From: a phage
Strand: one strand, 5' to 3'
Length of the DNA stretch: 39,315 nt
Sequence record: PZ445456.1
Shown: positions 1-39,315 of the stretch, piece after piece
Layout: each line of letters begins with the position of its first letter
Numbering within the stretch: the stretch's first letter is position 1
Made by a program: the position numbers and the translations under genes
The notes under the pieces: model-generated
What the model saw: the letters and a program-made list of their open reading frames with translations, nothing else
Told to the model about the DNA's origin: nothing
The model's database searches: none

Positions 1-1761
1 ATGTCACAATCCCAAGAAGCTAAGAACGCGCTAATCATTGCGCAACTTAAGGGTGACTTCGTGGCCTTCCTGTTCGTCTTATGGAAGGCTCTGAACTTAC
101 CTAAACCAACCAAGTGTCAGATTGATATGGCACGTACACTCGCTAACGGCGACCACAAGAAGTTTATCCTTCAGGCGTTCCGTGGTATCGGGAAGTCCTT
201 TATCACCTGTGCGTTCGTTGTGTGGGTGCTGTGGCGTGACCCTCAACTGAAGATACTCATCGTGTCTGCCTCCAAGGAACGTGCTGATGCTAACTCCATC
301 TTCATCAAGAACATCATCGACCTCCTTCCGTTCCTCTCTGAGTTGAAACCTCGACCGGGACAGCGAGACTCCGTGATTAGCTTCGATGTTGGCTTGGCTA
401 AACCAGACCACTCTCCCTCTGTGAAGTCTGTAGGTATCACTGGTCAGTTGACTGGTAGCCGTGCTGACATCATTATCGCAGATGACGTTGAGGTTCCCGG
501 TAATAGCTCTACGAGTTCTGCCCGTGAGAAGCTCTGGACGTTGGTAACTGAGTTTGCTGCATTACTTAAGCCGCTGCCTACCTCTCGTGTTATCTACCTT
601 GGCACACCTCAAACCGAGATGACGCTCTACAAGGAACTTGAGGATAACAAAGGTTACAGTACAGTAATCTGGCCAGCACAGTATCCTCGTAATGACGCTG
701 AGGCTCTCTACTATGGGGACCGCTTGGCTCCGATGCTTAAGGCTGAGTATGATGAGGGCTATGAGTTACTTCGTGGTCAACCTACTGACCCTGTTCGATT
801 CGACATGGATGACCTCCGTGAACGTGAACTCGAATATGGTAAAGCTGGCTACACTCTTCAGTTCATGCTTAACCCGAACCTTAGTGATGCCGAGAAGTAC
901 CCTCTACGACTCCGTGACGCTATCGTGTGCGCTGTGGACCCTGAACGTGCCCCATTGTCTTACCAGTGGCTTCCGAACCGTCAGAACCGCAATGAGGAAC
1001 TCCCTAACGTTGGTCTGAAGGGTGATGACATCCATGCGTTCCATACGTGCTCTTCTCGTACCGCTGAGTATCAGTCTAAGATTCTGGTCATTGACCCAAG
1101 TGGTCGTGGTAAGGATGAGACCGGGTATGCAGTCCTCTACTCACTGAACGGTTACATCTACCTGATGGAAGTCGGAGGGTTCCGTGGTGGCTACGATGAT
1201 GCTACCCTAGAGAAGCTCGCTAAGAAGGCCAAGCAGTGGAAGGTACAGACAGTCGTCCATGAGTCCAACTTCGGTGATGGTATGTTCGGTAAGATTTTCT
1301 CTCCGATTCTCCTGAAGCACCATAAGTGTGCCTTAGAGGAAATCCGTGCTAAGGGCATGAAGGAGATGCGAATCTGCGATACTATCGAGCCGTTGATGGG
1401 TGCACACAAGCTGGTCATTCGTGATGAGGTTATCCGTGAGGACTACCAGACTGCTCGTGACCTTGATGGGAAACACGATGTCCGCTACAGTGCGTTCTAT
1501 CAGATGACCCGTATGACTCGTGAGAAGGGCGCTGTGGCACACGATGACCGCATTGATGCTATCGCATTGGGTATCGAGTTCCTTCGTGAAGGGATGCTTG
1601 TGGACAGCCGTGTAGGTGAAGAAGAGATGACCCTTGAGTTCCTTGAACACCACATGGAGAAACAGACCATTGGTGGTGATGCTATCCATAGCTACGAGGC
1701 TGGTGGCGTAGACATCTACTACGAGGACGATGGAGACTCTAGCTGCTTCATTGAGTGGTAA
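1..1761 (+). CDS. 19: Terminase large subunit (DNA maturase B), 586 aa
   Basis: Near full-length match to T7 gp19 as recalled ([25 protein letters not shown]..., [38 protein letters not shown]); RBS AAGGAGG lies at the window end just upstream across the circular junction. Confidence 0.95.
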
Positions 1762-1781
1762 TAGATAATAGGAGGTATATA

Positions 1782-2228
1782 ATGAGAGTGGCAATTGATA
1801 GTATCACTGGTTGCCACATCTTCCAAGGGTGTAAGACTAAGGGTGGCTACGGTAGGATTCGTGTTAATGGTGTTCATTGGATGGCACATCGATACGCACT
1901 ATTCGTCCACCTGAAGCGTCCTTTAAGGGAAGGATGTGTGGTAATGCACTCCTGTGATAACCCTTCGTGTGTCAATCCAGCGCACTTATCTGAGGGAACA
2001 CAGAAAGAGAACATGGCTGACTGTAAGACAAAGGGCCGTATGGTTCGTGGAGGTTCTTCGGGTCCACGCAAAAGTCTTACAGAGAGGCTCCAAGAGTCAT
2101 TTGAGAAACGACTAAAGGCTGTGCTTGAGGCTAATGGCTCAGACGCTGAGGTTGCTAAGAGACTTGGTTTAAACATCCAGTGGGTCAAGAAGGCTCGATC
2201 TGGTAAACTAAATATGCACGTAAAGTGA
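1782..2228 (+). CDS. HNH homing-type endonuclease with C-terminal HTH-like region, 148 aa
   Basis: ATG at 1782 preceded by AGGAGG (1770-1775). HNH signature CHIF..C..GYGRIRVNGVHWMAHRYALFVH...HSCDNPSCVNPAHL; C-terminal EVAKRLGLNIQWVKKARSG resembles a helix-turn-helix. Confidence 0.8.
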   Translation: MRVAIDSITGCHIFQGCKTKGGYGRIRVNGVHWMAHRYALFVHLKRPLREGCVVMHSCDNPSCVNPAHLSEGTQKENMADCKTKGRMVRGGSSGPRKSLTERLQESFEKRLKAVLEANGSDAEVAKRLGLNIQWVKKARSGKLNMHVK

Positions 2229-2294
2229 CTTACTATGCACTATGGGCACCCTATTGAGTGAGGTATAAAAACCTAATGAAATCAAGGGTGTCCC

Positions 2295-2317
2295 TAATAC
2301 GACTCACTATTGGGAAG
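2295..2317 (+). promoter_or_regulatory. Phage RNAP promoter, right-end (phiOR-equivalent)
   Basis: TAATACGACTCACTATTGGGAAG; 22/23 match to this genome's own promoter consensus; position after gene 19 region as in T7. Confidence 0.7.
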
Positions 2318-2476: not shown

Positions 2477-2632
2477 ATGCGCTTACTATCCGTGCTCAAG
2501 ACACTGGCAACGCATCGAGTGACTTACAAATTTCTCGTTGTACTTGCTGCTTCCATTGGTCTCGCATCTAGTGCTGAACACATCGGTGAACTGGAGACTC
2601 TGCTTTGTTCTCTACTCACTTGTGTTCCTTAG
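2477..2632 (+). CDS. Small hydrophobic protein, 51 aa (gene 19.5 position)
   Basis: ATG with strong RBS AAGGAGGA 8 nt upstream; MRLLSVLKTLATHRVTYKFLVVLAASIGLASSAEHIGELETLLCSLLTCVP; sits about 180 nt downstream of the right-end promoter as gene 19.5 does in T7. Confidence 0.45.
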   Translation: MRLLSVLKTLATHRVTYKFLVVLAASIGLASSAEHIGELETLLCSLLTCVP

Positions 2633-2639
2633 ACTGATC

Positions 2640-3215
2640 ATCGGCGCTTAGTGCGCTCTTAGTGATTATGGTCGATATACATCTTCCCTATAATCACTGT
2701 AAGAAGTCAACTCTAAGAGTAACCCTTATGTACCACTCTATGGTCTACAGGGTCTCTTAGGGTCTCTCACGTAGTCTCACCTTATGATAGAGCCTCTGTG
2801 GTTAACCTTATGAGACTTGATGTACCCCTTTAAGAATCCTACAGAAAAATCTGAGAGGGTATCTCATAGTTCATACAAAGTGTTTCCCCCCCTATGGCCT
2901 CCTTCAGTTACCCCAAAGAGTCGGCCCCTATGGTAACTTTATGTTTACTTAATGTCAATCCTTATGTGTGACATTGGGTGAATCACTTGGTGTTACCACT
3001 AGATGTAGTGCTTAGTGTGACCTTATGACCACTATATGTAGTCCTCTCTGTGTCCCTATCTGTAAGTGACCATTGAGTTACTCCTTATGTCATCACCTTA
3101 TGTCATCTCCTTATGTCATCACCTAGAGTCTCTCCTTATGGCTGGCTATCCTTATGTTAACCTTCAGTCGGTGCCTTCAGTCGATAGACCTTATGTTGTC
3201 ACTTAAAGACCATAC
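2640..3215. repeat. Genome-terminus region with arrays of short direct repeats (11 CCTTATG copies plus CCTATGG and CCTTCAGTCG variants)
   Basis: CCTTATG at 2724, 2780, 2806, 2960, 3021, 3083, 3096, 3109, 3134, 3150, 3189; triple tandem CCTTATGTCATC(A/T) at 3083-3122; CCTTCAGTCG twice at 3161-3183. Non-coding; positionally equivalent to the T7 terminal repeat with flanking short-repeat arrays. True ends and repeat length cannot be read from sequence alone. Confidence 0.6.
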
Positions 3216-36314: not shown

Positions 36315-36337
36315 CAATACGACTCACTATTGGGAAG
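36315..36337 (+). promoter_or_regulatory. Phage RNAP promoter (phi17-equivalent)
   Basis: CAATACGACTCACTATTGGGAAG followed by leader hairpin GGGAAGG..CTTCCC. Confidence 0.7.
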
Positions 36338-38869: not shown

Positions 38870-39315
38870 ATGCTCAAGAATTTAAAGAGCTACGCCATCG
38901 CTGTGGCCTTTGTCTTGGGGATGACCCTTGCGTACAACCACGGATATGACAAAGCTAACACTAAATGGGAACAGGAGGTGCACAATGAGTACGTTAAGAA
39001 AGTTAAGGCGACTGAGGATAAACAGGCTGCTATTAACGAAGTCTCACGACAATACCAAGAAGACCTTGCGGCGCTGGAAGGCAGCACTGATAGGGTCATT
39101 AATGATTTGCGTAACGATGGTAAGCGGCTGCGTGTCAAGCTGTCAAACACCTCACGAGAGCTCCAAGCTAACGGTGGATGCCTCGCTGATGGTCGAGCCG
39201 AACTTGACGAAGAGTTTAGTAAGCGTCTTATCGGAGTAACTCAAAGAGGGGATGCGTGGATTCGTGCGCTCCAAGATACAATAACTGAAATGCAAACTAA
39301 GAAGGAGGCTAAGTA
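38870..39315 (+). CDS. 18.5: Spanin inner-membrane subunit (Rz-like), 3' end at the window edge; stop completes across the circular junction
   Basis: RBS GGGAGGG; N-terminal TM anchor KSYAIAVAFVLGMTLAY then coiled coil; 148 codons open to the window end; final ta plus the first a of the window form TAA. Confidence 0.85.
   Translation, partial: MLKNLKSYAIAVAFVLGMTLAYNHGYDKANTKWEQEVHNEYVKKVKATEDKQAAINEVSRQYQEDLAALEGSTDRVINDLRNDGKRLRVKLSNTSRELQANGGCLADGRAELDEEFSKRLIGVTQRGDAWIRALQDTITEMQTKKEAK
38985..39239 (+). CDS. 18.7: Spanin outer-membrane lipoprotein subunit (Rz1-like), embedded in 18.5 in the +1 frame, 84 aa
   Basis: RBS CAGGAGGTG; MSTLRKLRRL...ALIGSLMICVTMVSGC (lipobox-like ..SGC); C-terminus LMVEPNLT matches T7 gp18.7 (..ISGCAS...LMVEPNLT). 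Confidence 0.8.
   Translation: MSTLRKLRRLRINRLLLTKSHDNTKKTLRRWKAALIGSLMICVTMVSGCVSSCQTPHESSKLTVDASLMVEPNLTKSLVSVLSE

Follow-up and report, generated by a model that had tools for sequence, protein, structure and literature searches.

A free-standing HNH_3 gene, probably a homing endonuclease gene, on a cassette between gene 19 and phiOR of a Berlinvirus-like phage

Described relatives of an HNH gene beside a T7-type terminase gene

For the free-standing homing endonuclease genes (HEGs) of T4-like phages, "intronless homing" is the established model. The present study concerns the sequence record PZ445456.1, a stretch of 39,315 nucleotides (the window, by which we mean the whole of it) that is the whole genome of a T7-like phage, Berlinvirus-like and in circular permutation, and opens at gene 19, the gene for the terminase large subunit. 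At positions 1782 to 2228 an open reading frame (ORF) for an HNH endonuclease stands between gene 19 and the phage promoter phiOR. We propose that this ORF is a free-standing HEG of the HNH_3 or I-HmuI-like class, carried on a cassette that replaced the ancestral gene 19/phiOR spacer, a reading to which we give a probability of roughly 0.75. The original prediction, made from the letters of the sequence, had offered two possibilities, a mobile homing endonuclease or a partner of the terminase in DNA processing; the first is the one favoured by the data presented here, namely an HNH_3 match above threshold, a polymorphic locus and a cassette that moves independently of its flanks.

Like the free-standing HEGs of T4-like phages (Seg, Mob; mobE), the window gene is intergenic, lies beside an essential conserved gene, has a patchy distribution and marks a boundary of genetic exchange (PMC10448857). 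It differs from them in nuclease subfamily and in phage lineage, and homing has been shown experimentally for several T4 HEGs, whereas the window gene is known from sequence. More generally, HEGs have been found to cluster beside terminase and other essential genes and to mark the boundaries of genetic exchange (PMC10448857), and the HNH HEGs scattered in T3/T7-like genomes have been described as parasitic (PMC11680406).

Among individual enzymes, I-HmuI, a nicking HNH homing endonuclease of Bacillus phage SPO1 (PDB 1U3E), is close in architecture, with the same order of modules: an N-terminal beta-sheet region, an HNH core, a linker and a C-terminal helix-turn-helix (HTH). Sequence identity to I-HmuI is only ~18%, and the core of the window protein is rich in Cys and His, with a zf-His_Me_endon flavour. 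Moreover, I-HmuI, I-HmuII, I-BasI, I-TslI and I-PfoP3I have their genes within group I introns of DNA polymerase genes, whereas the window gene is free-standing and intergenic; I-TslI and I-PfoP3I are characterised intron-encoded relatives from T7-like phages (PMC3428280). Gene 19 of the window is uninterrupted, the HNH ORF lies between its stop codon and phiOR and not within an intron, and a search of the whole window at Rfam gathering thresholds returned no intron family and no other RNA family.

The proteins of the HK97 gp74 type, which are short HNH (PF01844) proteins of cos phages, resemble the window protein in being encoded beside terminase genes and near a genome end. They belong to the packaging module as conserved components, go with Terminase_1 terminases and aid cos cleavage. 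Unlike them, the window HNH gene is missing from 43 related records, including its nearest whole-genome relatives, and from T7, and it pairs an HNH_3 nuclease bearing an HTH with a terminase of the T7 type. HNH genes beside terminase genes are on record, some of them acting with the terminase (Kala et al. 2014 via PMC8861465; PMC10448857), and the passage of PMC8861465 that cites Kala et al. 2014 reports this partnership for Terminase_1.

An intact HNH_3 protein with an I-HmuI-like predicted fold

The gene and its parts, all on the plus strand, are as follows.

1782..2228, plus strand: HNH_3 endonuclease ORF of 148 aa plus stop (ATG at 1782, TGA at 2226-2228), from the ORF list, Pfam and PHROG
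1769..1774, plus strand: Shine-Dalgarno sequence AGGAGG, 7 nt upstream of the ATG, read off the sequence and kept in HNH-bearing relatives
1926..2018, plus strand: HNH (beta-beta-alpha metal finger) core, residues 49-79, with H56, C58, D59, N60, C63, N65, H68 and N77, from Pfam HNH_3, the invariant columns and the I-HmuI profile alignment
2076..2201, plus strand: predicted C-terminal three-helix HTH-like DNA-binding domain, residues 99-140, from AlphaFold2, Foldseek and profile matches

The ORF starts 20 nt past the stop codon of gene 19, in agreement with the placement immediately downstream of the terminase large subunit that had been predicted, and the strong ribosome-binding site (RBS) noticed ahead of it is indeed there. 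That the homologues have the N-terminus MRVAIDSITGCH in common confirms ATG 1782, and not the upstream GTG 1755, as the start codon. The complete HNH signature read from the letters was borne out by the profile search then proposed: Pfam HNH_3 (PF13392) matched residues 49-79 at 28.3 bits (E=1.4e-6), above its curated gathering cut-off of 24.8, and PHROG 6254, "HNH endonuclease", matched over the full length of the protein (E=2e-57). In a family alignment of 64 homologues, drawn from a database of 5.8 billion proteins, the window protein retains every invariant residue (C11, G22, Y23, H36, H56, C58, D59, N60, C63, H68, L69 and G72) as well as the nearly invariant N65 and N77. The zf-His_Me_endon match was below threshold, Pfam HTH_8 reached only E=0.16 and NCBIfam gave no match. 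An AP2 module, named alongside the HTH in the models first suggested for the search, was not detected in the HNH protein, and tblastn with this protein found no second HNH copy in the window.

A PDB search with the single HNH sequence gave insignificant matches only, so that fold and profile searches were needed. The AlphaFold2 model, built on the 64-homologue alignment, has a mean pLDDT (per-residue confidence) of 86.2. Its N-terminal half is rich in beta structure and holds a beta-beta-alpha core, with strands at 3-34 and 52-73 and helices at 35-44 and 74-83; residues 84-98 form a linker of low confidence, followed by C-terminal helices at 99-116, 121-128 and 132-140. The best Foldseek match in the PDB is I-HmuI (1u3e), over the full length (E=4.9e-4, probability 1.00, 166 aligned columns), with I-PpoI ranking after it. 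The three C-terminal helices weakly match Fis, Mor and XRE-type HTH domains in Foldseek, and in the family profile this region aligns with HTH proteins as well as with the I-HmuI HTH, results that agree with the HTH-like region of the original prediction. In the core, the profile pairs VVMH56 of the window protein with VVDH of I-HmuI, and KEN77 with KIN. In I-HmuI these motifs contain the catalytic His75 and the metal-binding Asn96, and the Asp of VVDH is Asp74, a metal ligand.

A mobile cassette in place of an ancestral spacer

The insertion and its flanks were delimited by a junction alignment of the window with CarlSpitteler and 285P (HNH-less) and with P1338 and Yepe2 (HNH-bearing), and by a listing of the intergenic sequences of 17 relatives. 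The following features, again on the plus strand, describe the site.

1769..2294, plus strand: 526-bp HNH cassette made up of RBS, ORF and a 66-nt non-coding tail, standing in place of the ~80 nt that follow TAGATAA in the 87-nt spacer (junction alignment, spacer listing)
1762..1768, plus strand: TAGATAA, the last bases common with HNH-less genomes and the left junction (junction alignment, spacer listing)
2295..2317, plus strand: phiOR-type phage RNA polymerase promoter TAATACGACTCACTATTGGGAAG, the right junction and start of the right homology arm (exact match to the promoter consensus of the window)
1..1761, plus strand: gene 19 for the large subunit of the terminase, flanking the cassette on the left and forming its left homology arm (Pfam, CarlSpitteler comparison)
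2244..2293, plus strand: imperfect hairpin within the cassette's 3' non-coding part, ending 1 nt before phiOR (minimum free energy -21.1 kcal/mol, z=-3.7, none of 200 shuffles as stable)
2477..2632, plus strand: gene 19.5 homologue of 51 aa, downstream context (ORF list; annotated gp19.5 in BA14 and Kvp1)

The end of gene 19, the TAGATAA after its stop, phiOR and the sequence downstream are common to all genomes compared, and the right flank, from phiOR onward, is 95-100% identical across all of these relatives. Between them, the boundaries of the cassette fall exactly at TAGATAA on the left and at position -17 of phiOR on the right, and the junctions are identical to the base. In the HNH-less relatives the same place is taken by a gene 19/phiOR spacer of 87 nt that is unrelated to the cassette; the comparison with close relatives lacking the insertion, which had been suggested as a way to define the site, gave base-exact boundaries through CarlSpitteler and 285P. 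T7 itself has no HNH gene here, in agreement with the prediction: in NC_001604 gene 19 ends at 39130, phiOR starts at 39229 and no gene lies between.

The empty-site spacer is homologous to the gene 19/phiOR spacer of T7, the observed score being reached in 0 of 1000 shuffles. The 3' non-coding segment of the cassette was considered as a diverged empty-site spacer and rejected as such, since its homology to the empty-site and T7 spacers was not significant (score reached in 96-358 of 1000 shuffles). Because the empty spacer, and not the cassette tail, is homologous to the T7 spacer, we regard the empty site as ancestral and the cassette as a derived replacement. A local match of 14 out of 16 positions at the HNH stop codon, CGTTAAGTAACTTACT against CGTAAAGTGACTTACT, is of marginal significance (15 of 500 shuffles), and we draw nothing from it. 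A likeness of "CACTATGGGCACCCTA", just after the ORF, to the start region of phiOR is not kept in P1338 and Yepe2 and was dropped as chance.

The locus is polymorphic. A nucleotide search with the ORF matched 110 phage records, 53 of them over the full length, and all full-length copies among the matches listed are close to the right end of the genome, the place of gene 19. As for the empty-site spacer, 43 records have it, with 90.6-100% identity over the retained part, and 38 of the 43 cover at least 80% of it. The gene is thus not universally present at this locus, and in all three clades formed by the 3' ends of gene 19 HNH-bearing and HNH-less members are interleaved. Gene 19 of the HNH-less CarlSpitteler, CECAV058 and 285P is 96-98% identical to that of the window; for CarlSpitteler, which carries Bas68 locus tags and which we take to be a member of the BASEL phage collection, identity is 98.1% over the gene and 100% over its last 100 nt.

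Orthologues occupy the same intergenic site in other genera, as fPS-59 g045 (Helsettvirus) and as 13a gp19.4 and Vi06 "7.7" (Teseptimavirus), and further ones at the gene 19/phiOR site are Berlin ORF42, the Yep-phi copy and gp42 of Salmonella phage BP12A. Yepe2, Berlin, Yep-phi, BP12A, P1338, PP74, fPS-59, 13a and Vi06 share locus, orientation, RBS and domain layout, with proteins of ~144-156 aa. Protein identity to the window HNH is 81-88% in Yepe2, D226 and P1338 and 53-54% in 13a gp19.4 and Vi06; nucleotide identity is 73% in PP74 and ETEP21B and 70.5% in fPS-59. The locus had already been annotated, as "gp7.7 homolog" in Yersinia phage Yepe2, "putative homing endonuclease" in Escherichia phage P1338, gp19.4 in 13a and "HNH homing endonuclease" in Pectobacterium phage PP74 (orf49), Altay-2017 and YepMm; the literature searched contained no paper characterising this orthologue group, and none of the orthologues is characterised biochemically there. 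With no protein in either database more than 88% identical, the window allele is new at the level of sequence, and, unlike its orthologues, it stands between flanks that are elsewhere known from HNH-less phages only. Family members further removed (at most 37% identity), T7 gp7.7 among them, lie at other genomic positions. T7 gp7.7 belongs to the same family, with 39% identity over residues 8-106 to the T7 locus at ~19.0-19.3 kb, but its genomic site is another one and the match spans two thirds of the query, stopping short of the C-terminal HTH region. Each T7 record holds two places matching the HNH protein, and the second HNH_3 gene on the T7 map is gp5.3.

Cassettes and flanks tell different histories. 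No other cassette is more than 88.6% identical to that of the window, whereas the window flank is 98.6% identical to that of an HNH-less phage. PP74 and ETEP21B share a cassette at 98.5% identity against 83.5% for the adjacent 500 nt of gene 19, while the flank of ETEP21B is 97-98% identical to the HNH-less BA14 and Kvp1; between BP12A and D226/SEqdws315 the figures are 93% for the cassette and 83% for the same stretch of gene 19. At synonymous sites the HNH gene has diverged about twice as much as gene 19 when the same pairs of genomes are compared (e.g., 0.39 versus 0.19 for P1338). This mismatch of identities and the decoupled synonymous divergence lead us to conclude that the cassette moved between genomes independently of its neighbours. 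Moreover, the ratio of nonsynonymous to synonymous divergence (dN/dS) of the HNH gene was 0.16-0.26 in nine orthologue comparisons, and the protein is therefore under purifying selection.

As to its setting, the window is 93-94% identical over 24 kb to the Berlinvirus phages CarlSpitteler, PhiV-1, vB_CECAV_058 and JSS1 in a phage collection search. We regard it as a Berlinvirus with no record of its own in that collection because the best identity is only 93-94%, and at this overall identity to the nearest database phage it is probably a new genome at the species level; its physical ends (the terminal-repeat region) should lie at ~2700-3200 of the window. Gene 19 matches Pfam Terminase-T7_RNaseH-like (E=9e-40) and Terminase_6N and no other Terminase family. 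The phiOR-type site is one of 12 T7-type promoter sites in the window, and phiOR is annotated at the matching promoter in Yepe2, BA14 and 13a. The nearest promoter upstream of the HNH ORF is at 36315; no phage promoter and no terminator lies between gene 19 and the ORF, from which late expression on gene 19 transcripts is expected, and a scan of 1500-2700 for sigma-70 promoters and intrinsic terminators gave nothing exceeding expectation.

Several observations on the site and its neighbours deserve mention in their own right. The hairpin of the cassette tail is kept in P1338 and Yepe2 with G-U or compensated changes and lost in PP74 and ETEP21B; in fPS-59 a hairpin with different arm sequences has a fully paired outer stem of 15 bp (z=-6.1). 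Covariation is weak (43 of 500 shuffles as high in an alignment of 10 sequences, in part owing to fPS-59 being out of register), and the hairpin is thermodynamically supported, not proven by covariation. It might stabilise the 3' end of an mRNA or be a site of the RNase III type. The 87-nt empty-site spacer (L003:2262-2348 in CarlSpitteler; also in L001 and L013-L016; L018:1832-1912 in T7) shows 94-100% identity among records in which most of it is preserved, compared with 69-100% for the adjacent 3' end of gene 19, and contains a TATGC...GCATA inverted repeat that is also found in the T7 homologue. This conservation beyond that of the adjacent coding sequence suggests a cis function that has escaped recognition, although HNH-bearing phages live without the spacer. 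In Salmonella phage vB_STy-RN5i1 (L019:1990-2110) only the first ~36 nt of the spacer remain, followed by ~120 nt that are unrelated and carry no gene annotation, and in P151 (L020) the 3' half of the spacer has diverged; the gene 19/phiOR site seems, in general, to be a replacement hotspot.

Elsewhere, Yersinia phage fPS-59 carries two different HNH_3 genes on either side of its terminase gene (L011:72-467 and L011:2201-2650), a small "HEG island"; the upstream one (HNH_3 at E=8e-15), whose tail is weakly AP2-like, overlaps gene 19 at its start. In Salmonella phage Vi06 (L012:1-2143) the annotation gives gene 19 as a pseudogene in two pieces, within which lies an ORF of 180 aa (L012:300-842) that had no Pfam match; this may be an intron or another insertion in a Teseptimavirus terminase gene. 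Yepe2 has a (GGA)n-like run, GGAGGAGGAGGAGGAGG, before the HNH start codon (L002:2250-2288), and tandem repeats of the ACTCTTAGTGACT type occur downstream of phiOR in Yepe2 (L002:2860-2960) and Berlin (L007:2681-2784); both the run and the repeats are absent from the window.

Homing and its alternatives

Altogether, the data show the domain family and predicted fold, the intactness of the gene, purifying selection, the exact boundaries, the polymorphism and the horizontal transfer apart from the flanks, which are the usual comparative marks of a free-standing HEG. We propose a model in which (i) the gene would be transcribed late, by read-through from the promoter at 36315 via genes 17-19, and translated from its own strong RBS; (ii) upon co-infection with an HNH-less relative, the protein would bind DNA through its N-terminal beta-sheet region and its C-terminal HTH; (iii) the HNH-less genome would be nicked or cut at or beside the conserved 87-nt spacer, while the HNH-bearing genome would be immune, its copy being without that spacer; and (iv) recombinational repair would copy the cassette in, the homology arms being the gene 19 3' end and the highly conserved phiOR/19.5 region. 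In this model we infer the enzyme activity, the choice between a nick and a double-strand cut, and the position of the cut.

Some points weigh against the homing model or temper it. Met55 stands where I-HmuI has the Asp of VVDH, hence metal ligation must differ from that of I-HmuI; it is probably of the kind found in Cys/His-rich HNH_3 or His-Me enzymes. The match to I-HmuI by sequence only is weak (E=0.016). The window and CarlSpitteler are nearly identical in their flanks; a co-conversion tract cannot be seen, and no donor of the cassette was found in the databases. The literature searched reports no cleavage activity, cut site or super-Mendelian inheritance for any orthologue, and the pattern could in principle arise by ordinary homologous recombination between conserved flanks, without any drive by the nuclease. 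As pointed out by Barth et al., bioinformatics alone cannot prove active homing, and roles in homing and with the terminase are not mutually exclusive (PMC10448857).

The alternative that survives best, though we consider it unlikely, is that of a nuclease no longer homing but kept for exclusion or interference, i.e., for the damage it does to competitor phage or host DNA, with the cassette spreading by ordinary recombination. Purifying selection shows a benefit or a drive without telling which, and the data presented here fit nuclease-driven gene conversion and a combination of selection and recombination alike. Against a general weapon, the orthologues occupy a single intergenic site in three genera and the cassettes are swapped precisely there, which we read as the signature of site-specific homing; furthermore, marker exclusion and homing are normally two outcomes of one cleavage event.

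In a further and rather improbable reading, the cassette would not simply be a parasite of a neutral gap: the nuclease would target the 87-nt cis element, which is conserved between T7 and the Berlinviruses, by the packaging-relevant right end and so exclude cut competitor genomes from maturation, with the hairpin of the cassette acting as a substitute. If this were true, the element would be a weapon of interference that brings along a functional replacement for the very cis element that it destroys.

Could the gene instead be an inactive relic, the decaying remnant of a former homing endonuclease? Degeneration of HEGs is expected after fixation, the 3' non-coding hairpin has decayed in some lineages such as PP74, and the cassette diverges faster than its flanks. 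The ORF of the window is nevertheless full length, with its RBS intact and all the invariant residues of the family present, dN/dS is well below 1 in all nine comparisons, and polymorphism, the state in which active HEGs are maintained, is still found at the locus; we consider decay improbable.

Finally, a packaging accessory that would work with the terminase on concatemers near the right end, as HK97 gp74 does in cos cleavage, is the part of the original prediction that we disfavour and consider highly improbable: the HNH gene does directly follow the terminase large-subunit gene, a few hundred bases from the phiOR/right-end region, and is co-transcribed with it, in line with the partnerships on record, but CarlSpitteler, CECAV058, 285P and T7 are viable phages that package their DNA without it, gene 19 is a T7-type terminase with an RNaseH-like nuclease domain of its own and not a Terminase_1, the HNH protein is of the HNH_3 or I-HmuI-like class with a predicted HTH for site recognition, and the cassette moves independently of gene 19.

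The homing reading means that the gene is to be labelled a free-standing HNH_3 homing endonuclease and not a packaging factor, a change of little import beyond annotation. The locus offers a clean natural HEG cassette with base-precise boundaries, for which HNH-less partners such as CarlSpitteler are available, and with such a pair of HNH-bearing and HNH-less phages, the homing and marker exclusion of T7-like phages could conveniently be measured. For the Berlinvirus genomes themselves, the cassette marks a recombination boundary that explains the local mosaicism at their right end.

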